Shown here: in pieces, positions 3,037 through 60,276 of the stretch | Numbering within the stretch: position 1 is the stretch's first letter | Layout of the letters: the number at the start of each line of letters is the position of its first letter | NCBI GenBank assembly: GCA_050179755.1 | Contig: JBFXEV010000001.1 | Location: forward strand, 1,061,940 to 1,125,939 | Source of the DNA: Candidatus Babeliales bacterium | GTDB taxonomy: Bacteria > Babelota > Babeliae > Babelales > JBFXEV01 | Length of the DNA: 64,000 nt | Reading direction: 5' to 3' | Notes under the pieces: model-generated | The model's input: only the letters and a program-made list of their open reading frames with translations | Told to the model about the DNA's origin: nothing | The model's database searches: none | Position numbers and translations under genes: made by a program

Positions 3037-3092
3037 CCAGCCTACGCTGAGGTCCGCTCATGCTGAGCTTGTCGAAGGAAGGCGGACTAGAG
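3037..3092. repeat. GC-rich palindromic dispersed repeat copy
   Basis: Contains CCGCTCATGCTGAGCTTGTCGAAGGA (3054-3079), 25/26 identical to the reverse complement of 32847-32872. GTCCGC/GCGGAC arms flank it. Confidence 0.55.
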
Positions 3093-6453: not shown

Positions 6454-6468
6454 ACTTTAGGATAATTA

Positions 6469-11225: not shown

Positions 11226-12197
11226 TTAGTTTTGAGTAAACAGATGTTGCAATTTGGTATTAATATCTTGCATGCTTGTTTGTGCGGTAAAATCACACAT
11301 AAATGGCACTATAGTAATATAGCCTTGTGCAAGAGCAAGGTTGTCTGAATGAGCGGCAGTATCTTTATAATCTACTACGCATAAATCAATACAAAAATTG
11401 TTATCACCTTTATCATACGCTCTAAACACTGTATTTCCTTTAAGATACGTATCATACACTGCGTGGCCTGATTTGCATAATGCAATTCCTTTAATAGGAG
11501 CTTGTTCTGTTGCGTCAGCTTGTAATGCGGGAATATTCATATTTAATAAAACGCCATCAGGCAGAAGTTGATCGTTATCATCACGCTGTGCATCAAGTAA
11601 TTCCACAAAATAAGTAACAAATTTTGCCGTTTCTTGTATACGTGATTCATTTGCTCCTAAATTAATGCTTATGGCAATACTGGGTAGTGATTTTCTCCCC
11701 ATGCATACGCTGCGTGCCACTTGTGCAGCACCCACGGTGCCAGAATGCACACAACGAATGCTTACATTTTCACCACGGTTAGGCCCAGAAAGCACAATAT
11801 CAGGCTCACATCCAGCGCGGTACATTAATTCTTCACCCACAAGCACGCATTGGCCCGGAGTGGCCGGCCAGGATTTCCCTGCAAGTGGCCCAGCAATGTA
11901 GCCTATTTCTGTGCTTTGTACTGCAAATTCTTGATGGCCAAGTGGGATTAATTGCACATGCTTGCTTGAAAGTTGTACTGAGGTGCCGCAACCACTTTGG
12001 TTTGAAGAAGGGGCCACTAAAAATACGTTGTGGCCAGCATCACGCAGAGTTTGTTTGAGTGCTTGTATTTCAAGCGTGTGATAGCCATCATCATTAGTCA
12101 GAAGAATATTGAGCTTGCGTGGTTCTTTTGCGCAGACAAAATTTATTATAGTGGTGTTTGTAAGCACGATGCTGAGTAGGAGAAACATTTTCTTCAT
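11226..12197 (-). CDS. surE: SurE-type 5'/3'-nucleotidase with signal peptide
   Basis: ILLTNDDGYHTLEIQAL N-terminal SurE motif preceded by MKKMFLLLSIVLTNTTIINFVCA. Confidence 0.75.
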   Translation of the reverse strand: MKKMFLLLSIVLTNTTIINFVCAKEPRKLNILLTNDDGYHTLEIQALKQTLRDAGHNVFLVAPSSNQSGCGTSVQLSSKHVQLIPLGHQEFAVQSTEIGYIAGPLAGKSWPATPGQCVLVGEELMYRAGCEPDIVLSGPNRGENVSIRCVHSGTVGAAQVARSVCMGRKSLPSIAISINLGANESRIQETAKFVTYFVELLDAQRDDNDQLLPDGVLLNMNIPALQADATEQAPIKGIALCKSGHAVYDTYLKGNTVFRAYDKGDNNFCIDLCVVDYKDTAAHSDNLALAQGYITIVPFMCDFTAQTSMQDINTKLQHLFTQN

Positions 12198-12211
12198 GTG
12201 GTTCCTTTAAA

Positions 12212-12397
12212 GTGAAAATTTTCTTGGTAATCGTATGCCAAACATAGTAGTAATTTCGCGTGCATTACCGTCTGGTAATGTGCTTGCCAATTCTTCAAGC
12301 GTTATTGTGTGATTGCCTTGTTTGCCAATGATAATTACTTCTTCATCATTATAAACTTCATCTTGCCCAATATCCACCATAAATTGATCCATGCAAA
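12212..12397 (-). pseudogene. Orphan 3'-terminal fragment of alr (left direct repeat of the island)
   Basis: 186 nt with 2 mismatches to 17947-18132. Encodes MDQFMVDIGQDEVYNDEEVIIIGKQGNHTITLEELASTLPDGNAREITTMFGIRLPRKF. Everything upstream in the 95-aa ORF is unrelated to Alr. Confidence 0.85.
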
Positions 12398-12500
12398 ATA
12401 GATGCATGCGCAATACATCCAATTGCCTCAAGAGCTTCATCGTTATTTTGAGCTGCTGATGCAAGCGCTTGCCCGCTTTTCTTATAGACCACATTAAGTT

Positions 12501-12529
12501 TTACAAAATCTGACCCTTTGCAATATAAT
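12501..12529 (+). promoter_or_regulatory. Sigma70-like promoter TTACAA-N17-TATAAT upstream of the giant ORF
   Basis: Hexamers at 12501-12506 and 12524-12529. Confidence 0.4.
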
Positions 12530-12564
12530 CAGAAAATCTTGGGATGCGCTCAGTCTCATATGTG

Positions 12565-12593
12565 TTGAACTAGTATACTTATTGGAGTATAAT
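12565..12593 (+). promoter_or_regulatory. Sigma70-like promoter TTGAAC-N17-TATAAT
   Basis: Hexamers at 12565-12570 and 12588-12593. The -10 overlaps the listed TTG start, which argues for a downstream start such as the ATG at 12632. Confidence 0.4.
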
Positions 12594-15500
12594 TGAATGA
12601 GTTTTTACATCATGGAAGTGTCATCATTCCTATGTTTCGCTTAAGCTTGTCGGTACGTTTTCAACTAATATTAAGTTTGATTTACTTAGGTCTGATTTTT
12701 TTTGTATGGCCTAGCAAGCTGTACACATATTCTGTGGATACAATAACTTTTTCAGGCTCTTCGTATCCAAATGATTCAAACACCATTAGAGATCAAAAAC
12801 CGCGCATTTCGCAAGAAACTGCAAACATTCGTAGTCGTATTGAAAGCATTAATAATCCTGATACTATCCCTTCTGGTACGTTTCCAAAAAATAACAATTA
12901 TAGTGAGTATGAATTTATAGAAGAACGAGACCGAGATAGAAAAAGAGCAGAAAAAGAAAGACGTGGGCAAGCAGAAAACCAAAAACAAAAAGAAGAAAAA
13001 ATTATACAGAAGGAAGTTGCAAAAAAGTTATTAGATCAATCAAATAGAATTTCATCTTTTACACAGCAAACATCTTCCTCATCTCACTACGCTAAACAAG
13101 ACAAATCACCTGACTATATAACAAAACGCGCCACGTATTTAAAAAAGTTCCATGATGATCCTGATTATTACTACAGATCTACCGTCTATTTAAGGTATTC
13201 AAATTACCAAACAAGATCTCTTCTCGAGCAACACACGATTGATACGGATGAGTTTTATAATGAATTCTTCGGCAATCACTTGCAACATGGAATTCATGAA
13301 GAATATTTAAACATTGTCTCTCGTGTAACTAAAATTAATTTTGATAAAAACAACTGTCAACTCAGATCATTTATTGTATTGGCTGTGCAAACTTCCCGCG
13401 ATAACAATGTAAAAGGCAATTGTGTGACATCTTTAGAAATTAATGATTTTTGTCATCATATCCTGAATCCTAATTATCATGGTTTTCTTGCAGGTCAAAT
13501 TGCTCACTTACAAACAACTATTACCTATTATGAATCAAGTCATTGGAAACAAGCTCTAGGGTATCTAGCAGACGCTGCTCTAGGTGATCAAGAAATGCGC
13601 GCTTGCTTGAATGCTGCTCAAAAGTTTACTGAACAATTCAACATAATAAGGGATTCTCAATATAATGTGCAAGTTATAGAAATTATGGAGCAATTAAGCT
13701 TCAATGAACTTTCTGATCTCACGGCGCAGCGCCAATTTGAATTGTTAGAAAAACATCATGAAGCGATTGCCATAAAAGCATTACGAGCGCTAAATCAACA
13801 AAATATAAAAGATTTGCCAATTTTTGGTTATGCAGTTTCTATTCTTAAATTAGATAATCCACATAATGCATCAAATAGAAAGCTCATTGATTATTTATTA
13901 TATTCTAATGATTGTCTACATCGCGTTCATGAGCTCACGAATACGCCATATAGCTCTTTTCAGCAAAAAAATCCTTTCTTCACCGATAAAGGTATTCTTA
14001 AAGAATATGCTATTATTGCAGATATTGATAATTTGCCTATTCCGCCATTAGATCATTTAAAAAGCCCCGTATCTGCCCACGATTTATTATACACCTATTG
14101 TACAACTAATAAACTTGAGAAAAAAAAATTGGCTTATAGTGGCCTTTATCATGCAACCTATGCAACGATTCATCATCATTCTGAACGCTCAAAAGGCCAT
14201 GAGTTGCTTGCCGATAAGTATTATAAAACACTCTATAGTAGTGTGTTCAGTAAAAATGAAAAACTTATTGATTGGTGTGATGATCTTGCGTGCAGTTATG
14301 AAAACGTGTATCAACAAGAGGTGCACGATGAGCTTGTTTGGCTAACTAATTATTATATTGATACTCAAGAAAAAAGTATTAAAAAAGATGCAATCACCCT
14401 CAGATTGCTTGATGATATTGAGGATACTTTAATTACTGCCCATGGTTATAATCAAGATAATCAGTCAGAAAAAAGTCATGACCTTATTGCAAATATCGTA
14501 CATAACTTTGGTATGCTGCCAAAAGAAAATCAAAAAACACCCGATCTATTTCAATCACTCAATCTACTAGATGTTTCTAGAAATATAAGTAATAAAATAC
14601 AAGCAAGAGTTGCACATATTAAAGTGCATGCATGGTTAAATGATTATAATCTTGAAGAAACACTAGAGTATGCTCGGCATGAGCTTTCAAAAATGGAAAT
14701 ACAGCATGGCAAATTAATATGCCAAGCCGATTCAATTCAAGAAAGACCTGATGAGGTAATTCAATCACTATGTTTAGCAGAAGTTCTTGGATTTAGCGTA
14801 AAAACTGATGCAGATACTATTGATATTGGTTGCATTCCTAAAAAAGATCTTGCAACATTTAAAGACAATTGGCCAGAAGAAGAAGTGGTACAGAATGTAT
14901 TCAACCTTTGGCCTGAAGAAGTCCCCTTGTGTTCTGCAGGGTCACAAGGTGCAGCATATGAACGATATGCTGATCGCTATGATGCCTATCAAGAAACCAA
15001 ACTCACGCCGTATGTTTTTTTTGAAAGAACGTATGAAATTTCGAAAGAAGCTCAACAATTGCTTGATAAAAATGGAATAGATAGTGATTATTTAAAAGTT
15101 GGAACATACAATCGTATACAACATCAATTACATATAGAACTCATTGATATTCTTGAACAAACAACATCTTTAGACGCTCATCAAGAAGTGTGCGATTTAT
15201 TACGCTCGACAAACACTATGATGCTTGATTTTATATCAAGTGCAGCATATGAGAATAAAAATGGCAATATTTTACGCACGTGGACTATTGCTGATTTTTG
15301 TTGGGCAACGCTAGATTGTGGTCAAGCAATTCTTGAGGGAGCTCTTGAGGGCGGTGCTAATGCATTGATCTATCCTTTCAATTGTCCTGTTGAAACAATC
15401 TTGTTTACCGTAGCAGGTAAATATATGTTGTATTATCAACTTACAAAGCTTACTTATGAACTTGGCAGTGCGGTGTACGATCATCTTTCAAAAGAACAAG

Positions 15501-16516
15501 AAGAAAATACATCCAGCGAAACAAAAACTGCAATACAATTACGCGATATTTTAAAAGCTGCATCTTCTTTCGGTGCACAATTTTTGGTAGACCATAAAAT
15601 AGTAAATCCTATAGTTACGCAACGTATTAATTTAATGCAAAGTAAATTGGTCGATAAGTTTGTATTAGAAAATACGACTCAATGGTCTAAAATGAGACCA
15701 GAGGCTATTAAAGCTCCACAGACAGCGCAAGTGCAATTGGCAAGTGGTGAAAAAATTGAAGTAACTTTTCACAATGAAAATTTAGGGCAACGGCCGCAAG
15801 GCTTAAATTCTCCACAGAAACCGCGGAATTCATCGGGTGATAAAAAAGAATATCCAAGACCATCACCTGAAGAAATAGATCGCAATAGAGTAAATAAAAA
15901 TTTAGCAGATAAAGCTCGTAAACAAAAAGCTATTGATAATGCATCTCAAAAAGTGGAAAGAACCAATCGTCAAAAAATTAATACTGCCCAAAATATTCAA
16001 GATGCACAAATTTGTATCTTACATAAATATGACGAATTAGAAAAAATTTTTTATAAACATCTTTCACCTCATGCTGAATTTTTATATAAAAAATTTGGGA
16101 TAAGGATAAAAGGAATTGATTTTTATCATCATATGGAAAGAGATTTTAATCAAAATATAAAAGGTTATACAGGTTTTCATTCGGCACGCAATCATCCTGA
16201 GCATGTTTTTAAACTATTAGATGGTCCTAATGAGCATGGATTTGAAAATATTATTGTTGGTAGTGCAAGAAAAATAAAAAAAGCTCCTACCAGTACGTAT
16301 CCAAAAAACTGGGATGAAATTACTATCGGCCAGAGAGTTATTGAAGGGTTGCTTTCAGGAGAAGTTCATAAAAATAAGGGTGGAATCTTGGAAATACATG
16401 GAAAAGCTCAAAATTATTTACCTCATAGGGGTGTTGTTCCGTTTGATATTACAATTTTTTTAGAACCTAGTGGAATGATAAGGTCATCATTTCCACAATT
16501 AAATTTTAGGAAATAA
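12593..16516 (+). CDS. Giant (about 1300 aa) membrane-anchored protein with EndoU-like C-terminal toxin domain (polymorphic-toxin-like)
   Basis: N-terminal TM helix (LILSLIYLGLIFFVW), a KE-rich region and a long helical body with an internal repeat (HLQHGIHEEY.../RIQHQLHIEL...). The C-terminal ~168 aa (nt 16010-16516) carry GFHS...STYPKNWDEITIGQRVIEGL...IRSSFP, resembling bacterial EndoU nuclease toxin domains. The start may be the ATG at 12632. Confidence 0.65.
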   Translation: MNEFLHHGSVIIPMFRLSLSVRFQLILSLIYLGLIFFVWPSKLYTYSVDTITFSGSSYPNDSNTIRDQKPRISQETANIRSRIESINNPDTIPSGTFPKNNNYSEYEFIEERDRDRKRAEKERRGQAENQKQKEEKIIQKEVAKKLLDQSNRISSFTQQTSSSSHYAKQDKSPDYITKRATYLKKFHDDPDYYYRSTVYLRYSNYQTRSLLEQHTIDTDEFYNEFFGNHLQHGIHEEYLNIVSRVTKINFDKNNCQLRSFIVLAVQTSRDNNVKGNCVTSLEINDFCHHILNPNYHGFLAGQIAHLQTTITYYESSHWKQALGYLADAALGDQEMRACLNAAQKFTEQFNIIRDSQYNVQVIEIMEQLSFNELSDLTAQRQFELLEKHHEAIAIKALRALNQQNIKDLPIFGYAVSILKLDNPHNASNRKLIDYLLYSNDCLHRVHELTNTPYSSFQQKNPFFTDKGILKEYAIIADIDNLPIPPLDHLKSPVSAHDLLYTYCTTNKLEKKKLAYSGLYHATYATIHHHSERSKGHELLADKYYKTLYSSVFSKNEKLIDWCDDLACSYENVYQQEVHDELVWLTNYYIDTQEKSIKKDAITLRLLDDIEDTLITAHGYNQDNQSEKSHDLIANIVHNFGMLPKENQKTPDLFQSLNLLDVSRNISNKIQARVAHIKVHAWLNDYNLEETLEYARHELSKMEIQHGKLICQADSIQERPDEVIQSLCLAEVLGFSVKTDADTIDIGCIPKKDLATFKDNWPEEEVVQNVFNLWPEEVPLCSAGSQGAAYERYADRYDAYQETKLTPYVFFERTYEISKEAQQLLDKNGIDSDYLKVGTYNRIQHQLHIELIDILEQTTSLDAHQEVCDLLRSTNTMMLDFISSAAYENKNGNILRTWTIADFCWATLDCGQAILEGALEGGANALIYPFNCPVETILFTVAGKYMLYYQLTKLTYELGSAVYDHLSKEQEENTSSETKTAIQLRDILKAASSFGAQFLVDHKIVNPIVTQRINLMQSKLVDKFVLENTTQWSKMRPEAIKAPQTAQVQLASGEKIEVTFHNENLGQRPQGLNSPQKPRNSSGDKKEYPRPSPEEIDRNRVNKNLADKARKQKAIDNASQKVERTNRQKINTAQNIQDAQICILHKYDELEKIFYKHLSPHAEFLYKKFGIRIKGIDFYHHMERDFNQNIKGYTGFHSARNHPEHVFKLLDGPNEHGFENIIVGSARKIKKAPTSTYPKNWDEITIGQRVIEGLLSGEVHKNKGGILEIHGKAQNYLPHRGVVPFDITIFLEPSGMIRSSFPQLNFRK

Positions 16517-16517
16517 T

Positions 16518-17318
16518 ATGAATTCATTAATATTAAAGTATAATGATGGTTTTTATCGTTATAATGCATTCCAAATAACGAATGAATTGCTTGATTTGGC
16601 TGTGAGTCTGTTAACTACCGAAGAAATATGTACATCGGATTATTATAAAGAATTTATATACGAATTACCCTATAATACATACTCGGGTAATGCATATTAT
16701 ATGGAAAGAATAGATGATTATATCATTTTGGGTTGTCAATATAGCTTTGAAAGAGCATATTTGCATTTATATCAATTTGAAAATCTTATGAGTCAATGGC
16801 GAAAAGCATATGAAGATAAGCCAACTGAAATGATAATTTCAGTTGATGATAAAAATTTTATTATCTCGTATGAAAAAGATAGTAAGAGTATAAAATTAAC
16901 TTCAACATCAGAATATATAACATCAACATCGTTTTTAAGCGAATATCCTTATGCTGATAACTATGTTGAAATAGAGCCAATCTATGATGAATTACATGTG
17001 TTTGAATCTGATGATCGTAGGTTTAACGTATTTGCTTATTTACTGACAAGCAATATTCCTTCTTCAGATTATGTAGAAAAGTTGCAACAACCTCCTTATG
17101 AATATTATGATGATCGGTACTATTTAGCAATTGTTGAAGATAGAATTCTTATCTATGATAAAACAATGGAAATAAAAGTATTGCCAGCCTATAATAAATT
17201 TCTTGATCTTATGAAACAATGGCCACTAGCAGTACATAAAAAACCAAAACTTATTCGTATATATATTGAAAATGACTATGATCTTAAGATTTTTATATTG
17301 CAGCCAGTTTCTTTATAA
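16518..17318 (+). CDS. Candidate immunity protein (two tandem homologous domains)
   Basis: ATG lies 1 nt after the toxin stop. Acidic and Tyr-rich. The halves align (YYMERIDDYIILG...FENLMSQWRKAYEDKP vs YYLAIVEDRILIY...FLDLMKQWPLAVHKKP). Confidence 0.55.
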   Translation: MNSLILKYNDGFYRYNAFQITNELLDLAVSLLTTEEICTSDYYKEFIYELPYNTYSGNAYYMERIDDYIILGCQYSFERAYLHLYQFENLMSQWRKAYEDKPTEMIISVDDKNFIISYEKDSKSIKLTSTSEYITSTSFLSEYPYADNYVEIEPIYDELHVFESDDRRFNVFAYLLTSNIPSSDYVEKLQQPPYEYYDDRYYLAIVEDRILIYDKTMEIKVLPAYNKFLDLMKQWPLAVHKKPKLIRIYIENDYDLKIFILQPVSL

Positions 17319-17569
17319 TAGTTTTTGCATGGCTTAAACAATTGAGTTAAATCTTAGAAAGACAAAAAGTTAATGAATAGCGGATTGAACTTTATATTAT
17401 TTTTTTAACCAGGTGAAAATTTTATCTGGTAGGTTGTCGTTTGATGATCTAGTCGTTTGTATGTTCTGTGTATACGCTGTGACTGTATATAATCACATTT
17501 AATATGATAAAATAGATGTTAAGAGCATTTCTTAATTTTAATAAAGAGTAATACAATGAAAAAAACTAT

Positions 17570-17890
17570 ATGGTTGGTTGTTGTCCTGAGTGTAAATATT
17601 ATTTCTCCGTAATGGGTATGATGCGTTATGTGTATTGTGCAGAAGATGATACAACTGCTTCCTATTCAGCGATTTTATTAGCGACTGGCGTTGAAATTGT
17701 GACATGTGACAAAGAAAAAAAAGTATATCGTGCTTGTTTGACTCGTGTTGTATTATCACAAAAACCGGGTCGATTTACATTTGAGGAACAAGACCTTGAT
17801 TTTCCGCAATCAGTGTATGAGCAGTTAAAAGATAGGTATGAAGCAAATAAAACACGTGCATTGCAGACTTTTCAAACAAATATAGATTAA
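17570..17890 (+). CDS. Hypothetical protein (possibly frameshifted; see findings)
   Basis: 106-aa ORF. An 18-codon signal-peptide mini-ORF (17556-17612) sits in another frame over its 5' end. Confidence 0.3.
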   Translation: MVGCCPECKYYFSVMGMMRYVYCAEDDTTASYSAILLATGVEIVTCDKEKKVYRACLTRVVLSQKPGRFTFEEQDLDFPQSVYEQLKDRYEANKTRALQTFQTNID

Positions 17891-17941
17891 CAAAAACAGG
17901 AAGGCTTGAAATTGAAGAGATTGCGTGCGCATTTTCTTTTT

Positions 17942-19066
17942 TTATTGTAAAAATTTTCTTGGTAATCGTATGCCAAACATAGTAGTAATTTCGCGTGCAT
18001 TACCGTCTGGTAATGTGCTTGCCAATTCTTCAAGCGTTATTGTGTGACTGCCTTGTTTGCCAATGATAATTACTTCTTCATCATTATAAACTTCATCTTG
18101 CCCAATATCCACCATAAATTGATCCATGCAAATGCGCCCAATTATAGGGTAACGTTTGCCACGAATGATCACTTGCCCGCCATGCATAAATTGCCGATTA
18201 AAGCCGTCACCATAGCCAAGCGGCACCGTGATTACACGAGTATCTTTGGGTGCCTTCCACGTAAGGCCATAGCTCACGCCAGCACCCTCTTTGACTACTT
18301 TAAAATACACCACGCGTGAGCTGAGCGCCATAACTGCCTTTAATGCAATGCTGGTATGCATATGGGGTGCAGGTACTATGCCATACATAATGAGACCTGG
18401 CCGCACCATATCTAAATGGCTTTCTGGAAATTGTAAAATTGCGCCAGATGCTGCTATATGAAAAAGAGGTTTATTAGCAAAAATATGTGCATGGGCAACG
18501 CTTTGTTTAAAACGTTCAAGTTGTGTGCGAGCAAAAGTAAGGTCTTGTTCTTCACCCATTGCAAAATGAGAGAAAATGCCCACAACATCGCACCATTGTG
18601 TGGTGCTTGCATACTCGATGAGTTTATGCGCATTGTAATAATGAATGCCCGTGCGCTCAATGCCGGTATCAATTTCAAGATGTATGCGTGCGCGCTTTCG
18701 TGCGTGCTTTGCATGTTGTTCAATAGATTCTAGCTTGTTTAGTGATGCTGCGTTAATATCAAGATCATACTGTAAAAAGAGTTCAATTTGCCGGTGTAAA
18801 ATACCGCCAAGCACCACAATGGGCACTTTAATGTTTGCTTTTCTGAGTGCTATTCCTTCTTCAAGTAGTGCTACACCAAGCCATGAGGCTCCAATTTTTT
18901 GTAAGTGCTGAGCACATTCAATAAGGCCGTGCCCATACGCATTGCCTTTTACAATGGGCATAACATGCGCAGAGCCTACAAACGCTTGTATGGCGTGGAA
19001 GTTATGCTCAAGAGCAGAAAGATTAATGTTAATATAGGTGGGCCGTTGTTGCAGTTCTTCATACAT
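17942..19066 (-). CDS. alr: Alanine racemase
   Basis: PLP-lysine motif VKGNAYGHG, C-terminal beta domain and full length of 374 aa. Confidence 0.9.
   Translation of the reverse strand: MYEELQQRPTYININLSALEHNFHAIQAFVGSAHVMPIVKGNAYGHGLIECAQHLQKIGASWLGVALLEEGIALRKANIKVPIVVLGGILHRQIELFLQYDLDINAASLNKLESIEQHAKHARKRARIHLEIDTGIERTGIHYYNAHKLIEYASTTQWCDVVGIFSHFAMGEEQDLTFARTQLERFKQSVAHAHIFANKPLFHIAASGAILQFPESHLDMVRPGLIMYGIVPAPHMHTSIALKAVMALSSRVVYFKVVKEGAGVSYGLTWKAPKDTRVITVPLGYGDGFNRQFMHGGQVIIRGKRYPIIGRICMDQFMVDIGQDEVYNDEEVIIIGKQGSHTITLEELASTLPDGNAREITTMFGIRLPRKFLQ
17947..18132. repeat. Right direct repeat of the island (functional alr 3' end)
   Basis: 184/186 identical to 12212-12397 by manual alignment. 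Confidence 0.85.
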
Positions 19067-19092: not shown

Positions 19093-20148
19093 TCAAACCT
19101 TTAGTTGAGTTGAGGGACCAAAATAGTCACGCGCTCTTTCTAGCATTGCATTAAATTCATGCATATTGGTTTGCGTATCACGAACACCTTCAATATAAGT
19201 AATTCCTAAAATTCCGGAAGCTTTTGGTGCAAAATAAATATAGGCGGGTTTGCCGTGTTGCATTACGCGTACGTGTATAATGTATGTTAATGCGGCAATG
19301 GGCTGCTCTTTAAGGCGAATCAGATGGCCTTGCACAGGAATAATGCCCGAGTCATTGTTAAGTTGTTGTGCGCCTAGCCCGGTACAGTTAATAATAATTG
19401 ATTCATCTAGTTCATCAAAGGAAGTAATAGTGCGTTCATGCAACGAAATGCCAAGCTTTTGAGCGTGTGCTTTCATCTGTTGCATCATGTGATATGTGTG
19501 AATAAAGAGCGTGTTATATTCTCTTACCGCGTGCTGTTTGCCGTTGCCAAAATCTAGAGTGGCAAGCTTGGGCAATCCCCAAAAATTAAGCCGTGAATAT
19601 TTGCTTGTTAGATCTACATATTGCGGCAAGCGTTGTGCGGCAGAGGGTGCAATAAAAGGATGCTCTCCGTTGATAATGGCAGTATACTCTCGTAATGAAA
19701 CTTCTTGTGCGCGTTGGTATTTATTATACACGGGCGTAAAAGCAGTGTAAGGGAAAAATAAACCGACGGCGTTTTGCGACGTGGTGTTATCAAATTGTTT
19801 GGCAACTATTGTTACGGCATAGCCTTTTTGTGCGAGCGCAATGGCGCTTAAAAGCCCCATGCAGCCTGCACCAATAACGCAAATAGGTTTACTTTTGAAT
19901 GAGGGATGTTGCGTAAGTTGCGCTTCAAATTCTTCGAGCACTTGTTCTATAACGCCAAAAAGGAGTGTCCACCCCGATCCGCTGTGGCCATAATTGTGAA
20001 TAATAAGTTTATCATTTTTTACTTCCCCATAGAGTTGATAACCGTTTGCATGCTTAGGGCGAATGCATGATAAAAATTCTTCAATATGATCGGCTGAAAG
20101 AATGGGGGGTGTTAAATGGATTGTTTCCATGTAAGATTCTTGTTGCAT
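19093..20148 (-). CDS. D-amino-acid oxidase family FAD oxidoreductase, apparently circularly permuted
   Basis: HNYGHSGSGWTL (normally C-terminal) lies at residues ~51-62, ahead of the Rossmann motif ICVIGAGCMGLL (~89). INCTGLGA and PVQGH follow. 26 bp upstream of alr on the same strand. Confidence 0.7.
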   Translation of the reverse strand: MQQESYMETIHLTPPILSADHIEEFLSCIRPKHANGYQLYGEVKNDKLIIHNYGHSGSGWTLLFGVIEQVLEEFEAQLTQHPSFKSKPICVIGAGCMGLLSAIALAQKGYAVTIVAKQFDNTTSQNAVGLFFPYTAFTPVYNKYQRAQEVSLREYTAIINGEHPFIAPSAAQRLPQYVDLTSKYSRLNFWGLPKLATLDFGNGKQHAVREYNTLFIHTYHMMQQMKAHAQKLGISLHERTITSFDELDESIIINCTGLGAQQLNNDSGIIPVQGHLIRLKEQPIAALTYIIHVRVMQHGKPAYIYFAPKASGILGITYIEGVRDTQTNMHEFNAMLERARDYFGPSTQLKV

Positions 20149-20258
20149 AAGTAATAAAAGAATATTTGTTCAAGTATACAAAGAGTACCATGTGTCATGA
20201 AGAATGGGAATATGATATGCTAGTACTACTATATATTGGGATCTCTATAGGAAAATTA

Positions 20259-21884
20259 ATGAGAAAATTACACATTTTTTTAATTGTTATAATTTTAAGC
20301 CTTGGTGTCTATTGGGTTTGGTTTAAGCAATCTACGTTATCTCCATATGAGCTCTATAAAAATGAAATCCCTTATACATATCGTCTTGGACTTACTTCGT
20401 TAGAGCAAGAAATAATTATAGATAAGGTATCTATAATGGGGCACATTCCTGCATGGCTTTCTGGTACCTTGTTTCGTAATGGACCAGCCAAATTTACGCA
20501 AGGATCTAATTGGGTTTCCAATTGGTTTGATGGGCTTGCTATGATTCATGCTTTTTCCTTTCATGATGGCAAAGTTTCTTATGCCAACAAATTTTTACGC
20601 TCCGATGATTATGATTTTGTAGAGAAAACTGGAACTATGTCATATGCTGGTTTTGCACAAGATCCCTGTAAATCATATTTTAAACAATTATTTTCTTTGT
20701 TTGTGCCCGAAAAGAAGATAAAAAAAGAGTACGCATTGCCGAATGCAAATGTTAATATTGCATGTTATGGGCATCATATGGTGGCACTCACAGAAACACC
20801 TTTACCTATTGAATTTGACCCAAAAACTTTAAAAACAATTGGCGGTTTGCTTTACGATGATAAACTTCCAAAGCGTAGTATTCACGATACTGCTCATCCA
20901 CACTACGATAAAGAACGTAAAGAACATTTAGGGTATTATTCTCAATTTGGTAGAATTAGTACGCATAATCTTTTTCGTATACAAGATGGGTCTACTACTC
21001 GGGAAGTTCTGGCATCTATAGAAGTGCAAGAGCCTTCATACATGCATAGTTTTTTCTTGACAGAACATTATGCAATATTGACATTGCTGCCTTTGGTGGT
21101 GAATCCTCTTGATTTATTAACGAGTAAGAAGTCATTTATCAAGAACTTTAGATGGAAACCAGAGCTTGGAACCAAGCTAGTAGTCATTGATAGAATTAAT
21201 AATAAGATTCAGGGGTCATATAACACGCATGCGTTTTTTGCCTTTCATACGGTAAATGCTTTTGAGCAAGGTGACTCTCTTATAATGGACATTGTTACCT
21301 ATCCTGATGGTTCAGGAATTGGACAAGCAAAAATAGCCACAATTTTTGAAGGGAAGAATCCGGGAAACTTAGAACGCAATAAAGTATATACCGGAGAGCC
21401 AGACACAGATATTCTTGAGGTAGGTCAGCTAAATCGATTAACAGTGAATCTTTCGAGTGCGACTGTTGCTGTGCGTACGTTATATGATAACTTTATTGAG
21501 TTACCTCGTATTAATTATGAGCATTATAATACAAAACAATATTCCTATATCTATGCCTATGGAAAAAAGTATGCACCATTATTTGTTGCCGATAGGCTTG
21601 TAAAGGTTAATGTGAATACGGGTAAGTCTATTGAATGGTGGCAAGAGCATTGTTACCCCGGAGAGCCGATATTTGTAGCAGCTCCTTCGTTAAAATCGGA
21701 AGACGATGGAGTTATTCTTTCTGTTGTGCTTGATACACAAAAACAGACATCATTTTTGTTAGTGCTAGATGGTGAAACTTTTAAAGAACTGGCGCGAGCT
21801 TATGTGCCACATCATATTCCTTTTGGGATTCATGGACTCTTTATGGCTAATTCTTTCTTTTTAGGTGCGCCCAGCCGGGGTTGA
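20259..21884 (+). CDS. Carotenoid cleavage oxygenase (RPE65/CCD) family protein with N-terminal TM anchor
   Basis: FDGLAMIHAF, HPH.D, MHSFFLTEHY, FHTVNAFE and the terminal FGIHG motif (four-His iron site pattern). The ATG at 20259 is preferred over the TTG at 20166. Confidence 0.8.
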   Translation: MRKLHIFLIVIILSLGVYWVWFKQSTLSPYELYKNEIPYTYRLGLTSLEQEIIIDKVSIMGHIPAWLSGTLFRNGPAKFTQGSNWVSNWFDGLAMIHAFSFHDGKVSYANKFLRSDDYDFVEKTGTMSYAGFAQDPCKSYFKQLFSLFVPEKKIKKEYALPNANVNIACYGHHMVALTETPLPIEFDPKTLKTIGGLLYDDKLPKRSIHDTAHPHYDKERKEHLGYYSQFGRISTHNLFRIQDGSTTREVLASIEVQEPSYMHSFFLTEHYAILTLLPLVVNPLDLLTSKKSFIKNFRWKPELGTKLVVIDRINNKIQGSYNTHAFFAFHTVNAFEQGDSLIMDIVTYPDGSGIGQAKIATIFEGKNPGNLERNKVYTGEPDTDILEVGQLNRLTVNLSSATVAVRTLYDNFIELPRINYEHYNTKQYSYIYAYGKKYAPLFVADRLVKVNVNTGKSIEWWQEHCYPGEPIFVAAPSLKSEDDGVILSVVLDTQKQTSFLLVLDGETFKELARAYVPHHIPFGIHGLFMANSFFLGAPSRG

Positions 21885-21991: not shown

Positions 21992-22453
21992 TTACCTATA
22001 TTTCTCATAAAAATAATTCGTGAATAGTTCATGAGGATCATGCTGCTTTCTTAAATTAAGTAATTTGTGTAGAGAAGGATAAGCAGCTTGTATGTGCTTT
22101 GCGTCAGCATGAAGTTGGATTGGCAAGTAATAGGTTCCGTTTAAAGATATAGCAGTATTAATTAATTGCTGCGTCCATAATTTTGTAGTCGTGTTAGCAT
22201 CTTCTGTCATTGGTTGATTGAAAAATACTACAATACCAACACGATCTGTTGTGGTATAAGAAAGAAAGCTTTCTGTATTGCGGGGAATAAAGCGAAATGC
22301 CGCATGAAACCCTATTGTTGGGTCTTGCGATACGATTTTTAGATGTTCTACATATGCGGGCATTGTTAAATGTACCGTTTCTTGTTTGTAGAAGCTATGC
22401 CCGCCATTGGTAAGGCGAAAAAGTTCAGCGTTTTCACTACGGCTTGCGGTCAC
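21992..22453 (-). pseudogene. C-terminal remnant of an FAD-linked oxidase (DprE1/ALO-like)
   Basis: Only ~150 aa, ending NGTYYLPIQLHA...AYPSLHKLLNLRKQHDPHELF. The FAD-binding domain is missing. A signal-peptide mini-ORF (MQKKLIFIILFALSLSLY...) lies upstream in a different frame. Confidence 0.45.
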
Positions 22454-22757: not shown

Positions 22758-22982
22758 ATGTTTAGACAACTGATTACACGGTTTCATGATCTGGAATCGC
22801 ATCATCAAATAATAATTACGGTGATTGTGGCATTTGCTGCGATATGCGTGTCATGGGGAATAGAGAGATTATTAGAGCAATATTTTTTTCCTAATAAGCC
22901 AGCTCTTAGATATTTGATTGCAGTGATTGGTGGCTTATTAGTTCTTTATTTGGTTAAACATTTTTTATTGCGCGAAATATAA
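22758..22982 (+). CDS. Small two-TM membrane protein
   Basis: 74-aa ORF with two hydrophobic helices. Confidence 0.4.
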   Translation: MFRQLITRFHDLESHHQIIITVIVAFAAICVSWGIERLLEQYFFPNKPALRYLIAVIGGLLVLYLVKHFLLREI

Positions 22983-22998
22983 TAGAGCATAACGCGTT

Positions 22999-23071
22999 TA
23001 TGCATTTTTTGCTTCAAGTTGCTGTGCAGCTTTTGCAAAGTATTTTGCCCGCGTTGTGTGCGAAGGATGTG
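22999..23071 (-). pseudogene. Orphan 3'-terminal fragment of an M48-like peptidase paralog
   Basis: About 90% identical to 23741-23811 (5 substitutions and one 2-nt indel by manual alignment). Encodes ...HPSHTTRAKYFAKAAQQLEAKNA*. Confidence 0.6.
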
Positions 23072-23096
23072 CTAAATTAATTAACATTTAAGGGGA

Positions 23097-23735
23097 ATGA
23101 TAATGAGTAACGCAGCAATGCAAACTGGTAAATATAGATTATCGGTTGATAATGCAGTTCTTTTGCTGGTTGATCATCAAACAGGGCTTTTCCAATTGGT
23201 TCGGGATTATAGTCCAGATGAATTTAAGAATAACGTATGTGTATTGGCAGCTATTGGTAAAATGTATAATTTGCCTACTATTTTGACAACAAGTTTTGAA
23301 TCTGGGCCCAATGGCCCCTTGTTCCCCGAAATTCGTACATTACATCCTCACGCTACATTTATTGCGCGACCGGGTGAAATTAATGCTTGGGATAATAAAG
23401 ACTTTGTTGATGCGGTAAAAGCCACCGGCAGAAAAAAATTGCTCATTGCAGGCATTGTTACCGACGTGTGCGTGGCATTGCCAACACTTGCAGCACTTGC
23501 CGAAGGCTTTGATGTATATGTAGTAGCAGACGCTTGTGGCACCACAAGTGTTGCAGTGCGTGAACTTGCGCTCATGCGTATGGTACATGCGGGTGCAGTC
23601 ATTACTAATTGGTTTGCAGTATCATCTGAGTTACACCGTGATTGGCGGCATAATGGAGAGGCACTTGCAGCGCTATTGGGCCAGTACTTTGTGCCCTATG
23701 CTAATTTAATGAGCAGTTATAAAGCTAAGAAATAA
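23097..23735 (+). CDS. Isochorismatase / cysteine hydrolase family protein (YcaC-like)
   Basis: LLVDHQTGLF and IAGIVTDVCV (catalytic Cys) motifs. Confidence 0.8.
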   Translation: MIMSNAAMQTGKYRLSVDNAVLLLVDHQTGLFQLVRDYSPDEFKNNVCVLAAIGKMYNLPTILTTSFESGPNGPLFPEIRTLHPHATFIARPGEINAWDNKDFVDAVKATGRKKLLIAGIVTDVCVALPTLAALAEGFDVYVVADACGTTSVAVRELALMRMVHAGAVITNWFAVSSELHRDWRHNGEALAALLGQYFVPYANLMSSYKAKK

Positions 23736-24730
23736 TGTGCTATGCATTTTGTTTCAAGTTGTTGTGCAGCTCTTGCAAAGTATTTTGCGCGTGTTGTGTG
23801 CGAAGGATGTGGATCCATAATATCGGTTACTACTTGCGCTGGTGAATGATCATGCTCCGATAAAGCATTAAAATACTCACTGCGTGCTTTGAGTATTTCT
23901 GGGTCGCGTGTACGCTTGATAGAATCTTGATCGGCGCGATATTCTTGCCAATAAGTCCAAGCAGCGTTACATACTGCAGTGATTCCTATTTTGCCAAGTA
24001 ATGAAGGAATATGAGCAAGTCCGTGTAATACGGTATCTACAATGGTTGGGTCTGAAGCTAAGGTGTGTATATCAAAATAGCTTTTTAATTTTTCAGTTGT
24101 ATAAAGTGCCACTAAAACACTTGTGCCAAGGATTGCTATTCTTGTACGTGCATCTTTATGCAATAAATGTGAGCCTTCATGCAAAAGGGTGCCTTTCCAT
24201 AGAGCAAGCGTAGAGGCATCAATTGCAAATCCTGCTTGCTTTGCATTGGCAATAAAGACAGCAACAGGTAATTTGTTGAGTGCACTTTTTTGTGTAAGTT
24301 CTATTTCACTAAATCGTTGGGCATCTTGATTTTCTAATGCTTGTGCTTGATGCAGTTCAGCATCAGTTAAGTGTTCAGGTATGCTGATATATGATTTATT
24401 GTTGTAGTTTGTTGCAGCAAAATGAGATTGTGGTATTTTTACCACTTCAATATCAGCGCCTTGTAATTCAGGGTATCCTGCAAGTAACTGCTCACGCACG
24501 AATTTTTGGGTTTTAGGTTCCACGGGGCGTGCCTTGGCAACAAAGTCTTGCCGGTCTTGGAAGACCAAATACGCAGGAAGTGCCATAGGTATAACATAGT
24601 CAAGAGCTTGCATAGTTACATTAAAGCCAGAGGCTGCCAGATGGCCAACCCAGTCCATTGCTTTTGATTGCTGGATTATAGTAGATGCTGCTAAGAAGAT
24701 GAATCCGTAAAGTAGAGATTGCTTTTTCAT
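23717..24730 (-). CDS. Secreted HExxH zinc metallopeptidase, M48-like (paralog 1)
   Basis: Signal peptide, HEGSH, and EYRADQD ~80 aa downstream (the ExxAD third-ligand region of M48-type enzymes). Confidence 0.55.
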   Translation of the reverse strand: MKKQSLLYGFIFLAASTIIQQSKAMDWVGHLAASGFNVTMQALDYVIPMALPAYLVFQDRQDFVAKARPVEPKTQKFVREQLLAGYPELQGADIEVVKIPQSHFAATNYNNKSYISIPEHLTDAELHQAQALENQDAQRFSEIELTQKSALNKLPVAVFIANAKQAGFAIDASTLALWKGTLLHEGSHLLHKDARTRIAILGTSVLVALYTTEKLKSYFDIHTLASDPTIVDTVLHGLAHIPSLLGKIGITAVCNAAWTYWQEYRADQDSIKRTRDPEILKARSEYFNALSEHDHSPAQVVTDIMDPHPSHTTRAKYFARAAQQLETKCIAHYFLAL

Positions 24731-24880
24731 AGATTTACCCTTTTTTTACCCTGTTGCCAGAGATAATGCCTTTTTTATATTACTAATAGTATATATTATC
24801 TGGCAAATTTTGCAAGTTTTAGAGGGGGGGCCACATAGGGCAATTGCACTTAAAAGTCTTTATTCAAAAGATGCATTCAT

Positions 24881-24985
24881 ACCGCTCACCCTTCCCTCGA
24901 TACTAATCGCTGCGCGATTCACTCGGGATGAGCGGTTTATCGACTTGTCCTCCGTAGCTTTATGCGTAGGAGAAAAGGTCAAAGC
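24881..24985. repeat. GC-rich palindromic dispersed repeat copy
   Basis: ACCGCTCA (24881-24888) pairs with TGAGCGGT (24929-24936), with a nested AATCGC-tgc-GCGATT hairpin. Shares the CCGCTCATCC core with other copies. Confidence 0.5.
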
Positions 24986-25112
24986 GGGAAAATGAATGAG
25001 ATTAATCCCTATCTACACAATTTTAAATACATCTGCCTGAGGGGAAAGGTTTAGAGAAAAAAGCAAATTGAAACTGAAAGCTTACATTAGGGTAATTCCC
25101 GATTTGTGGTGG

Positions 25113-26162
25113 TTAATCACGCTTTATTAGTGCTTGTTTTTTTTCAAGCTTTTGTGCTGCATCAGCAAAATACTGAGCACGAGTCTTGAAGTTGAGATGA
25201 CTATCACCTAAATAATAATTTATTTTTTCTGGGATAGTTACAGGGCATGGCTGTGGTAAGGTAGCAAAATTACTACTAATTGCTTTTAATAAATTAGGAT
25301 TTTGTGTTCTTTTTATTGCATCTTGATCGGCACGATATTCATGCCAATAACGCCAAGTGCTAATGAGTAGGCCACAAGCTGCGACCTTGAGTGGTAATGA
25401 AACAATAGATCCTATTCCTCTTATCATATTATTGGCAGTTATGTTCTTAGGGTATTTTAGTGAAGTTAAACCAACAATTTTTTTAATTTTTTCTGTACCG
25501 AGAAGCACCAGAATATGCGGAGTAGGATTATATACAGTGCTAGGATCATAATGCAAAATGTGAGATCCTTCGTGTAAAAGAACGCCTTGCCAAAGGTTAA
25601 TAGTGGTAGGAGTCATCGCTTTGCCTTCAAGTTCACATTTGCTAATATATTCAGGCAATGTGAGTCTCTCTTTCCATCGTTCATTACTTGCAACTTTTCT
25701 CGTATAACCTAATACATTTTTTTCTTTAAGCGCACATGCTTTCCTATACTCTCGCTCATTAAAAGCAACGCTTATATACGCTGTGTTATTATGATACATA
25801 GCACCAAATGAATTGTTTTCAATAATTTGTATTTTAGTATCATTTAATTCTGGATAGGCATTTTTGATAAATGCTATTATTTTTCCTGCAGACTGTTCAG
25901 ATAGGCCTAGTAACGGATCTCGTGAACTTAGATCTTCATTATAGTCTTTTATGCTTATGAGTGCCCTTTGCCTTTCTTTATTCACTTTGTCGACGGTATA
26001 GCCAAAATAACCTATTACGCCCGCATAATTAAGCGCTTTCATGCCAAGCCTAAACCCATTACTGGCTTTTGGTGCAAAGCCTTTCATGGCATATGTTTGT
26101 TGGCCGAGAAAGGTCACTAGTAATAAGGTGAGTCCGTAGAATAAAGATTGTTTTTTAATCAT
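25113..26162 (-). CDS. Secreted HExxH zinc metallopeptidase, M48-like (paralog 2)
   Basis: Signal peptide, HEGSH and EYRADQDAIKRT. Overlaps the upstream paralog's stop by 8 nt. Confidence 0.55.
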   Translation of the reverse strand: MIKKQSLFYGLTLLLVTFLGQQTYAMKGFAPKASNGFRLGMKALNYAGVIGYFGYTVDKVNKERQRALISIKDYNEDLSSRDPLLGLSEQSAGKIIAFIKNAYPELNDTKIQIIENNSFGAMYHNNTAYISVAFNEREYRKACALKEKNVLGYTRKVASNERWKERLTLPEYISKCELEGKAMTPTTINLWQGVLLHEGSHILHYDPSTVYNPTPHILVLLGTEKIKKIVGLTSLKYPKNITANNMIRGIGSIVSLPLKVAACGLLISTWRYWHEYRADQDAIKRTQNPNLLKAISSNFATLPQPCPVTIPEKINYYLGDSHLNFKTRAQYFADAAQKLEKKQALIKRD

Positions 26163-27213
26163 GACTTATTTCAACTTTGTTCATTTCATGTGCTTGTTTT
26201 TCTTCAAGCTTTTGTGCTGCATCAGCAAAATACTTTGCACGAGTTTTAAATGCTGGGTGTGGATTACGAAGCATCATAAGTTTTGCAAATAAAGTAAGAT
26301 CCTGTGTTTTTTCAGCGCGTTCGTTGACGTAATGCATTTGTTCAAAAAAGTTACTCATAGCTTTTAGAACTCTTGGATCTTGCGTTTTTTCAATAGCATT
26401 TTGGTCAGCAGCATATTCACGCCAATTATCAAATGGCCATCGTAGGATCATGCAACATGCTATTTTGAGTGGGGTTGAAGGAATATAGCCTAATCCTTTT
26501 AGGATATTATTGGTGAGCGTTGGCTTTTGCAATAAATTACCAAGCCCGGTTGCGCGTTTTAAGATAGAGCTGCCAGCAATTACGAAAAGCGGTAGAGTAT
26601 TGCAAAGGCGATTTCTATTACGACAGTCGTTATGTGCAATGTGCGAAGCTTCATGAAGTAGCGATCCAGTCCACAAGGGCAGGGTTTGCGCTGTCATTGC
26701 GGTTCCCTCTGCTTCACACATAGCAATATATTCTGGAATGCTCATGCCATAATCTTGACCGATTAATTCAAGTTTTTCAGGCGTATAACGAGAAGTATTA
26801 AGCCTATTATACGTAAGAGCTGAGATGAGATCTTTATCACTGCATGGAGCAACTAAATAATCTTGATTGTTATGTAGTACTGCAGCCCATGATGTAAATG
26901 GTGCATGCACTACTTTAATATCTCTGTCTTTGAGCTCTGGATAAGCGTCGCGCATGGTGCTGAGAATGTATTCTTTTGATTCAGCGCCCAGTTTGTGCTC
27001 GTGTGGATTATTTGCCAAGTAGTCACTAAAAAGGCTTGCGCCGAGCTTATGTTCGTAAGCATAACATCCAGCAACTGCTGCTATGCTGAGTGCTTGCATG
27101 CCAAGCCTAAAGCCATGACTGGCTTTGTGCCCAAAGCCTTTCATGGCATGGGCTTCTTGGCACGTAATAATCAATAGGAATAGAATTGCGTAAAACGGGG
27201 ATTTTGTGTTCAT
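26155..27213 (-). CDS. Secreted HExxH zinc metallopeptidase, M48-like (paralog 3)
   Basis: Signal peptide, HEASH and EYAADQNAIEKT. Confidence 0.55.
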   Translation of the reverse strand: MNTKSPFYAILFLLIITCQEAHAMKGFGHKASHGFRLGMQALSIAAVAGCYAYEHKLGASLFSDYLANNPHEHKLGAESKEYILSTMRDAYPELKDRDIKVVHAPFTSWAAVLHNNQDYLVAPCSDKDLISALTYNRLNTSRYTPEKLELIGQDYGMSIPEYIAMCEAEGTAMTAQTLPLWTGSLLHEASHIAHNDCRNRNRLCNTLPLFVIAGSSILKRATGLGNLLQKPTLTNNILKGLGYIPSTPLKIACCMILRWPFDNWREYAADQNAIEKTQDPRVLKAMSNFFEQMHYVNERAEKTQDLTLFAKLMMLRNPHPAFKTRAKYFADAAQKLEEKQAHEMNKVEISHD

Positions 27214-39264: not shown

Positions 39265-39615
39265 AGTAGGAAGTGGCTTGAAGAGTAGTAACTTGATACA
39301 AGTTATGAGATCTCCCAAAAGAGAGGCCTTAAAGTCCACTTCCTACTAAAATTGACATATAAGTTGGAGATATTTAAGGTGTTTTTAACTGAGGTTAAAA
39401 GGCGAGTGAGTAATCAGCACAGTAAATATCTCCTCTAAATTGGGAAACGTTAACAGGCGTTCTTATGCATTTATCTTTAAAAGGAGACAATGAGTAATGA
39501 ATCTTAAGTGACGTTTCCCTCTAAATTGGGAAACGTAACAGGCGTTCTTATGAATTTATCTTTAAAAGGAGACAATACGTAATGAATCTTAAGTGACGTT
39601 TCCCTTTATTTTTTT
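39265..39615 (+). ncRNA. Candidate structured RNA: array of four stem-closed modules (strand inferred)
   Basis: Perfect closing helices: 39265-39276/39336-39347 (12 bp), 39366-39376/39423-39433 (11 bp), 39442-39450/39511-39519 (9 bp), 39528-39536/39596-39604 (9 bp). A CTAAA(A)TTG linker separates modules. TTTATTTTTTT follows the last stem. Confidence 0.35.
39442..39613. repeat. 86-bp tandem duplication (modules 3 and 4)
   Basis: Two near-identical units. The second overlaps the last codons and stop of the NUDIX gene. Confidence 0.8.
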
Positions 39616-60130: not shown

Positions 60131-60150
60131 GTTTGTTGGATGAAAAAACG

Positions 60151-60178: not shown

Positions 60179-60200
60179 ATATAACATATTTTTAAGTAAT

Positions 60201-60275: not shown

Positions 60276-60276
60276 C

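Follow-up and report, generated by a model that had tools for sequence, protein, structure and literature searches.

Direct repeats of a gene's 3' end that flank an insert are known from site-specific integrative elements that enter gene 3' ends and supply a replacement end, such as e14 or phage 21 in icd and the islands in tRNA genes. In these systems, one repeat copy forms part of the intact gene and the other is left as an orphan at the far end of the insert. Campbell-type integration, in which a circle that bears part of the target gene enters by a single crossover (suicide plasmids are an example), yields exactly the order of gene, insert, and duplicated fragment, and its repeats have the length of the homology; if the circle stems from the same genome, the outcome equals a tandem duplication. 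Truncated family fragments beside intact paralogs are also a feature of tandem paralog arrays, which evolve by birth and death and by gene conversion. Finally, a displacement model proposed for Rhs and type VI effector loci likewise involves orphaned 3' regions (PMC5361080).

The repeat and its edges

Here, we describe a layout of this kind in a stretch of 64 kb (the window, meaning the whole stretch of DNA analysed) from a member of the Babeliales, obligate intracellular parasites of amoebae. An orphan fragment, A1, and the 3' end of an intact M48-like gene, A2, flank a single hydrolase gene, as follows.

22758..22982, plus strand: gene for a 74-aa membrane protein, convergent with A1
22998..23071, minus strand: A1, an orphaned M48_1-type 3' end of 23 codons and the stop TAA; translation ...HPSHTTRAKYFAKAAQQLEAKNA followed by the stop
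23072..23102, plus strand: short hydrolase-gene leader containing a ribosome-binding site, AAGGGGA; the M48_1 homology stops sharply at its left edge
23097..23735, plus strand: gene for a predicted YcaC-type isochorismatase-family cysteine hydrolase (Pfam and NCBIfam profile matches)
23740..23811, minus strand: A2, the repeat copy formed by the 3' end of the intact M48_1 gene (alignment)
23717..24730, minus strand: M48-like paralog 1 (M48_1), with a HEGSH motif and an N-terminal signal-like segment
25113..26162, minus strand: M48-like paralog 2, its last ~55 nt 94.5% identical to paralog 3
26155..27213, minus strand: M48-like paralog 3 (ORF and family profile)

An initial annotation, made from the letters alone, had described A1 as a ~72-bp copy of the 3' coding end of M48_1. 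This copy is real, and a recount returned the same five substitutions and one 2-nt indel. The ungapped core of the repeat (repeat family D2; 23007-23071 versus 23747-23811) is 92% identical, and with the indel included 22999-23071 aligns to 23741-23811 over 73 columns at 90.4% identity (blastn, E 8e-20). In 100 shuffles, no chance match to a 37-mer of the repeat was obtained with up to 3 mismatches. Because the A1/A2 region is matched at 100% identity by two Logan contigs assembled from other runs, the repeat is not an assembly artefact. At the right, the homology breaks off sharply (23071/23072 versus 23811/23812), and at the left it ends with the stop codon (TAA at 22998-23000 versus TAG at 23740-23742). 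Two apparent extensions were dismissed: tblastn carried the M48 homology past 23071 to 23105, but, by eye, about 6 of the 34 added nucleotides match, and a match of the form ATAAyGyG between the sequence past the stop codon and the hydrolase stop region was too short and too diverged. No further M48 sequence was detected by tblastn around or to the left of A1, which comprises the last 23 codons only. Devoid of a start codon and of the catalytic region, A1 is a truncated segment homologous to an intact family member, and it shares just 60-69% identity with the 3' ends of paralogs 2 and 3. No intrinsic terminator was predicted within it.

Three of the five substitutions are synonymous (ACA/ACG, CGC/CGG, and CAA/CAG), and the other two, R->K and T->A, are conservative. 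Since the substitutions are of this kind, the homology terminates exactly with the stop codon, and 16 nt separate A1 from the stop of the convergent 74-aa gene, A1 seems once to have belonged to a working gene, with five substitutions being too few to serve as proof of coding constraint. A1 ends ...QQLEAKNA followed by the stop, and the M48_1 orthologs of the relatives L003 and L004 similarly stop a few codons past a conserved ...AAQ.LE segment, in support of the earlier suggestion that A1 retains the ancestral-looking short C-terminus. The 2-nt difference said to lengthen the functional gene into the 3' end of its neighbor was also seen: a 2-nt loss in A2 shifts the frame, and the M48_1 ORF therefore runs on to 23717, overlapping the hydrolase gene by 19 nt.

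The gene between the copies

As originally described, a plus-strand isochorismatase-family gene, convergent with M48_1, lies alone between A1 and A2, where it is the sole ORF with a family match. Its likely start is the ATG at 23103, giving a protein of 210 aa, as called in other assemblies. The gene is predicted to encode a YcaC-type cysteine hydrolase: it matches the Pfam family Isochorismatase (PF00857; 3e-21, 76.6 bits, cut-off 27) and the NCBIfam family YcaC (NF041461) at 2e-90 and 301.5 bits, just below the cut-off of 310, and D26, K113/K114, and C125 are invariant in the alignment.

The search for relatives covered several sources. Exact-protein look-up of M48_1 and the 74-aa gene returned the same strain only, and neither a DNA-pattern scan nor a protein-profile scan of JGI metagenomes found closer relatives. 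The hits of a genome scan with the hydrolase profile were for the most part Gammaproteobacteria, along with a single distant Babeliales chromosome that has no M48 neighbors. One candidate, P0009, turned out to be a non-Babeliales contig.

The initial annotation regarded the hydrolase gene as inserted cargo. The comparison with L003, L004, and L086 contradicts this, since in all three the gene occupies the same relative position, tail-to-tail with an M48-family gene or relic at a distance of 1-5 nt, as expected of a gene inherited vertically at this place; in L003, RPE65 lies upstream of it, as in the window. When its phylogeny was checked against a core gene, no foreign signal emerged: hydrolase identities decrease from L085 (88%) over L086 (85%) and L003 (83%) to L004 (79-81%), following those of DAO (L085, 73%; L004, 66%), and the hydrolase tree agrees with these identities. 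Its G+C content of 42.6% equals that of the neighboring genes, in contrast to 28-36% in the alr cargo described below, so neither G+C content nor the tree compared with DAO reveals an anomaly. A profile search detected no recombinase, transposase, or other mobility gene between A1 and A2, and there are no terminal inverted repeats around 23072-23739. The locus thus resembles the site-specific elements of gene 3' ends in its direct repeats and in the placement of the orphan copy, but differs from them in lacking an integrase, in that the putative insert is a single 0.64-kb resident gene present in relatives, and in the 7% divergence of its repeat. It differs from a transposon or insertion sequence in the absence of a transposase match and of terminal inverted repeats. 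These comparisons indicate that the hydrolase gene is a long-standing resident of the locus, packed against the M48-like array, and not cargo. L088, the closest relative by alr, RPE65, and DAO, has no hydrolase gene at this locus but a divergent copy elsewhere, and, given this absence, a history of loss and regain is conceivable.

The alr island and recombination at the locus

The initial annotation had compared the M48_1 repeat with a second structure about 5 kb away, the alr island.

12195..12397, minus strand: orphan 3' end of alr, spacer, and surE ATG (repeat alignment)
12398..17929, plus strand: alr-island insert, G+C-poor and missing from the alr-surE junction of relatives
17930..18132, minus strand: repeat copy formed by the 3' end of the intact alr gene at 17942-19066 (repeat alignment)

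This precedent proved sound. The repeat is real (96% identity over 203 nt and 98% over 192 nt), both A-B-A structures lie within 11 kb, and they share polarity and order as described. Because DAO, alr, and surE are contiguous in three relatives, with an alr-surE gap of 6-10 nt, the island is a true insertion and, judged from these genome comparisons, the one genuine acquisition here; the hydrolase gene, in contrast, is present at its site in L003, L004, and L086. The insert encodes proteins of 1307, 266, and 106 aa; the first shows weak similarity to a Babeliales EndoU polymorphic toxin, and the last has a homolog (48%) in L088. A profile search of this cargo gave no recombinase match, and no terminal inverted repeats surround the insert. 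The island is explicable by known integrase-free recombination.

From the two structures, it had been concluded that a dedicated, undescribed mechanism inserts cargo together with a copy of 70-200 nt of the recipient gene's 3' end. Two A-B-A structures of the same polarity within 11 kb, both devoid of integrase, transposase, and inverted repeats, are what such a mechanism might leave behind. However, with the hydrolase gene being resident, just one of the two cases is an acquisition, and the repeats are bounded differently, that of alr taking in the spacer and the surE ATG and that of M48 ending at the stop codon. Alignment of the junctions revealed no shared motif; ATGCA(T), found at one edge of both repeats, was discarded because ATGCAT occurs 49 times in the window. 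Nor did the 64 kb contain a third orphan 3' fragment, a 101-nt repeat at 5894/7075 representing two intact HisPhos paralogs. We consider a dedicated mechanism very improbable, and the notion of a recurrent, undescribed mode of gene acquisition was not borne out, with at most one acquisition (alr) and with integrase-free recombination yielding the same architecture.

The architecture initially proposed could also have arisen by known general recombination and from native rather than foreign DNA, if a native segment comprising the leader, the hydrolase gene, and the M48_1 3' end recombined with the resident M48_1 and orphaned the resident 3' end. The donor would have been DNA of a close relative or a sister chromosome. 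A2, continuous with the intact M48_1, would represent the homologous anchor on one side. The event might have combined a homologous crossover on one side with an illegitimate joint at 23071/23072 (homology-facilitated illegitimate recombination), or else circularisation may have been followed by a single Campbell-type crossover, although the M48_1 locus bears no sign of a circular intermediate or of vector sequence. Either route would create the A-B-A layout in one step, and the homology would stop at the stop codon because the copies came from different downstream contexts. The alr island, a true insertion of the same layout without integrase, and the lack of the hydrolase gene from this locus in L088 are in line with this possibility. 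It would further share with the Rhs and type VI displacement model the independence from an integrase, an anchor continuing into the intact gene, and an old 3' end pushed downstream and orphaned (PMC5361080), and the nearby alr cargo is polymorphic-toxin-like. Unlike in that model, the intervening DNA is a native housekeeping-type gene, and neither a donor nor a mosaic boundary was identified. Moreover, re-insertion calls for a prior precise loss of the hydrolase gene where it is ancestral, and for a very close donor: the copies are 92% identical, whereas this segment is only ~65% identical to the L003 ortholog. The native-like G+C content and tree of the hydrolase gene also speak against it, yet a donor as close as the repeat identity of 92% would escape both tests. 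Lastly, A1 and A2 have diverged by 7% compared to ~0.5% over 183 nt for the alr copies, and it is not obvious that both events belong to the same type. Overall, we regard such a re-insertion as possible but somewhat unlikely.

If true, an insertion at this locus would point to integrase-free transfer of single genes between intracellular bacteria, for which opportunities for gene exchange are commonly assumed to be scarce. It is tempting to speculate that short conserved 3'-terminal segments are portable homology anchors for the integrase-free insertion or swap of cassettes between close Babeliales lineages, orphaning the resident 3' end each time and constituting a general, recurrent route of gene flow that placed the toxin module behind alr and the hydrolase gene behind M48_1. 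We consider this generalization improbable.

Direct repeats most commonly originate from tandem duplication. A 740-bp duplication spanning the leader, the hydrolase gene, and the terminal 72 nt of M48_1, with subsequent loss of the upstream hydrolase copy, would account for the joint at 23071/23072, which is exactly as a duplication of 23072-23811 would make it. However, no remnant of a first hydrolase copy exists to the left of A1, the deletion would need an endpoint no more than a few bases from the M48 stop codon without selection for it, and the left flank is a tightly packed convergent gene that is located elsewhere in L004. We therefore consider this history improbable.

Turnover of the M48-like family

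The three M48-like paralogs appear to be distant, borderline members of peptidase family M48. Paralogs 1 and 3 score 20.6 and 22.0 bits against PF01435 (cut-off 20.3) and paralog 2 gives no match to this profile; the HExxH zinc motif is present in all three as HEGSH or HEASH. The proteins of paralogs 2 and 3 are ~37% identical, yet the last 55 nt of their genes are 94.5% identical, and in this 3' segment identical codons encode 15 of 17 identical residues versus 52 of 111 elsewhere (Fisher p = 0.001). This pattern indicates gene conversion, a process demonstrably active at the 3' ends of these two genes. The order and copy number of blocks in the array differ across the window, L003, L004, and L088. 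M48_1 orthologs share 61% identity in L003, the highest value among the relatives, and 54-55% in L004, and the tail type DPHPSHTTRA.YF (A-type) is native to them. The M48 relic beside the hydrolase gene of L003 is 190 nt long, internally deleted, and frameshifted; it aligns collinearly with M48 residues 77-90, 101-111, and 314-328 and matches M48_1-type proteins best. Comparison of these genomes thus shows an M48 family that is turning over by gain, loss, and decay.

The explanation we favor, tentatively, is that A1 is all that remains of a second gene copy of the M48_1 type. We infer that a full-length copy formerly stood at the position of A1, between the 74-aa gene, with which it would have been convergent, and the hydrolase gene, from which it would have been divergent. 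A deletion of ~940 nt, beginning inside this copy and stopping 31 nt before the hydrolase start codon, would have spared the hydrolase ribosome-binding site. The close likeness of A1 to paralog 1 would mean that the lost copy arose recently or that short-tract conversion acted on the conserved 3' segment. Support comes from the A-type tail being native to M48_1 orthologs, from the L003 relic, and from a second apparent relic in the same 1.2-kb stretch. As in tandem paralog arrays, a truncated fragment lies near intact paralogs, copy number and order vary, another relic is found in L003, and 3' ends evolve in concert. Unlike in such arrays, A1 is situated beyond an unrelated gene rather than within the array, and none of the relatives found has a full-length gene there: directly upstream of the hydrolase gene lie 32 nt in L003, 91 nt in L004, and 198 nt in L086 (the length shown), and no full-length M48 gene is located there in these three distant relatives. 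The origin of A1 as a remnant also requires at least two events, the arrival of a second copy and its deletion, and it is weakened by a layout formally the same as that of the alr island, a true insertion.

The locus resembles the usual debris left when gene families turn over and recombine, and not a new mode of acquisition. It offers a small case of paralog turnover in Babeliales, in which a resident gene adjoins the remains of a secreted protease-like family that evolves fast and undergoes gene conversion, and it cautions that layouts of fragment, gene, and intact gene are not always insertions, while directing attention to the alr island as the sole real acquisition here.

The second apparent relic is the following ORF.

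21992..22453, minus strand: 153-aa ORF matching only the C-terminal end of FAD-linked sugar-lactone/DprE1-type oxidases

With its ALO/DprE1-type C-terminus, this ORF is probably a gene relic as well. Like A1, it lies in the lineage-specific 1.2 kb that separate RPE65 from the hydrolase gene. The 74-aa gene has a homolog in L004 (61%) at a different place, where it adjoins DAO.

The repeated 3' end of M48_1

The fragment is a real feature, corresponding to the last 23 codons and stop codon of M48_1 (23717-24730), the first of three M48-like paralogs, and it lies in the following setting.

Genes around the fragment
11226-12197, minus: surE
12207-12494, minus: alr fragment
12593-17890, plus: three unannotatable genes
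17942-19066, minus: alr
19093-20148, minus: DAO-type oxidase
20166-21884, plus: RPE65-type oxygenase
21992-22453, minus: 153-aa ORF with matches confined to the C-terminal end of FAD-linked oxidases
22758-22982, plus: 74-aa membrane protein
22998-23071, minus: M48_1-type fragment
23097-23735, plus: YcaC-type isochorismatase-family hydrolase
23717-27213, minus: three M48-like paralogs

The initial annotation's claim that an M48-like 3' end is duplicated here was borne out. Fragment and M48_1 are 92% identical ungapped over 65 nt and 90% identical over 73 columns with a 2-nt indel, the five substitutions comprise three synonymous changes, R->K, and T->A, and a 37-mer from the repeat was never found in shuffles at up to 3 mismatches. 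Across the region, two independent Logan assemblies show 100% identity, so misassembly does not account for the layout. The tail DPHPSHTTRA.YF is native to M48_1 orthologs, which identifies the fragment as M48_1 type. The 2-nt loss is located in the functional gene and lengthens its ORF by 19 nt into the hydrolase gene, as had also been claimed.

The fragment has a sharp right edge; the probable hydrolase start, at 23103, is 31 nt downstream of it. On the left, the edge coincides with the stop codon, and 16 nt separate this codon from that of the convergent 74-aa gene. A promoter-like site, TAAACA-17-TATAAT, was noted from sequence at 22955-22983, at the end of the latter gene. If this site is used, the hydrolase mRNA would carry the fragment as its 5' leader, a stretch with 92% complementarity to the M48_1 mRNA 3' end.

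The hydrolase gene in related loci

Two M48_1 homologs detected among 5.8 billion proteins, together with the nearest hydrolase homologs, led to four related loci.

Related loci, with identity of their hydrolase to that of the window
L004, 81%: four UPF0149 genes ->, hydrolase ->, <- M48b, <- M48_1 ortholog; convergent stops 1 nt apart
L086, 85%: convergent M48-type tail (TRARYFAQAAQKLESQQASQRKN*) 1 nt after the hydrolase stop
L003, 83%: RPE65 ->, hydrolase ->, <- 190-nt M48 remnant, <- M48_2-like gene
L085, 88%: hydrolase directly after DAO, without M48 neighbor

An order of DAO or RPE65, hydrolase, M48 array, and ArgR-ABC transporter is common to the lineages. At 42.6%, the G+C content of the hydrolase gene is the same as for alr, DAO, and M48_1. 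By neighbor joining, the Babeliales hydrolases fell into a single group, ((window, L085), L086), (L003, L004), and their identities to the window protein rank as do those of the neighboring DAO gene. Conserved position, native composition, and DAO-like relationships mean that the hydrolase gene is best regarded as a resident of the locus. The initial annotation took it for inserted cargo and had itself listed residency of this kind among the results that would refute that reading; in L003, L004, and L086 the gene abuts M48-family DNA.

The closest relative as judged by alr (81%), RPE65 (83%), and DAO (77%) is L088/L093 (ERZ25039540 contig_1103), a complete genome of 1.87 Mb. Its syntenic locus reads UPF0149, UPF0149, <- beta-lactamase-fold gene, <- M48-like gene, and the hydrolase gene is absent from it. 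The sole copy, 71-73% identical, resides ~80 kb away among unrelated genes; it adjoins cupin and peptidase C11 genes, with EndoU toxin and small genes arrayed nearby. Most simply, the L088 lineage lost or relocated the gene, but the window's lineage may nevertheless have lost and regained it.

Origin of the fragment

Homology ending exactly at a stop codon, tight packing on the convergent gene, and mostly synonymous or conservative substitutions suggest that the fragment was formerly the end of a functioning gene that already had the present left-hand neighbor. For this reason we tentatively favor, at somewhat less than an even chance, a relic of a second M48_1-type copy, whose 5' part of ~940 nt would have been deleted down to the hydrolase ribosome-binding site. 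The 1.2-kb stretch between RPE65 and hydrolase is lineage specific (32 nt in L003) and also holds a second apparent relic as well as the 74-aa gene, which is located elsewhere in L004. The former, the 153-aa ORF at 21992-22453, present only in the window strain among the loci compared, matches FAD-linked sugar-lactone/DprE1-type oxidases just over their last ~100 residues and is probably a truncated gene relic. No full-length M48 gene was seen at the fragment position in the relatives compared, and the searched collections yielded no relative close enough to show one.

The M48 array itself is unstable and recombining. The order beside the hydrolase gene is M48_1, M48_2, M48_3, p144 in the window; relic, M48_2-like, ABC-ArgR, M48_1, p144 in L003; and M48b, M48_1, ABC-ArgR, p144 in L004. 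In L003, the slot adjoining the hydrolase gene contains a frameshifted M48 remnant of ~190 nt (15214-15412); in three frames, it matches M48 residues 77-90, 101-111, and 314-328 in collinear order and is hence an internally deleted pseudogene. At the distance of L003 the tail segment is ~65% identical, implying that fragment and M48_1 split recently or were homogenized. Homogenization is plausible because paralogs 2 and 3, ~37% identical as proteins, share a 3' segment of 55 nt (25130-25184 and 26190-26244) at 94.5% identity. Identical codons there encode 15 of 17 identical residues, versus 52 of 111 elsewhere (p = 0.001), indicating short-tract gene conversion.

Import of a leader-hydrolase-M48_1 tail segment from a very close relative, anchored by homology, could have taken either of two routes, a Campbell-type crossover or homology-facilitated illegitimate recombination. 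Such import would produce the same layout in one step and account for the stop-codon edge, but it needs prior precise loss of the resident gene and an undetectably close donor, and we consider it rather unlikely. Still less probable is that 740 bp were duplicated in tandem and the first hydrolase copy was then lost, since an unselected deletion endpoint would have to fall at the stop codon and no trace is left. The fragment is of a kind already known, a gene relic or a by-product of general recombination, and an insertion at the M48/hydrolase locus is not supported.

The alr island and other repeats

The alr island, put forward in the initial annotation as the precedent, does hold as an insertion: DAO, alr, and surE are contiguous in L088, L091, and L092, with gaps of 6-10 nt, so that the 5.5-kb segment 12398-17929 is a real insert. 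Within the island (12195-18132), the repeat covers the alr stop, a 9-nt spacer, and the surE ATG and is near-perfect over ~183 nt, with 1 mismatch; the intact copy retains the ancestral tail ...RKFLQ*, and the orphan the ancestral surE ribosome-binding site. Just past the perfect part of the orphan, 12397-12480 resembles a scrambled alr continuation with small insertions, in which the blocks GCGGGCAAG, AATTGG, and GCGCAT recur with altered spacing; either a complex junction or decay left untouched by conversion may account for it.

The insert is low in G+C (28-36%), gave no Pfam or NCBIfam matches, and revealed neither recombinase nor inverted repeats. Its 1307-aa protein shows weak similarity to a Babeliales EndoU polymorphic toxin, and L088 encodes a 48% homolog of its 106-aa protein close to the adenosine deaminase gene. 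The insert thus combines a polymorphic-toxin-like gene with a likely immunity gene. A comparable layout, in which displaced toxin modules leave orphaned 3' regions, has been discussed in connection with Rhs and type VI loci (PMC5361080).

The alr and M48 cases differ in their age, in the edges of the repeats, in composition, and in whether relatives lack the insert, and the two are therefore not evidence for the one recurrent process proposed earlier. A dedicated new insertion mechanism, for which their shared layout is the entire case, appears very improbable.

Further repeats were observed in the window. At 5779-7634, a cupin-like gene lies between two histidine-phosphatase paralogs that are 61% identical, an intact paralog-unrelated gene-paralog layout within the same genome. 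Upstream of a Nudix-like ORF, 39432-39607 contains a unit of 85-89 nt twice in tandem, the copies being 88-95% identical. A 27-nt inverted match (3053-3079 and 32847-32873; 96%), falling in the ...HPELVEGRR... region of an ankyrin-like ORF (32028-32957), and a group of short repeats, both direct and inverted, around 60 kb (59959-60338) are possibly small dispersed repeat elements.
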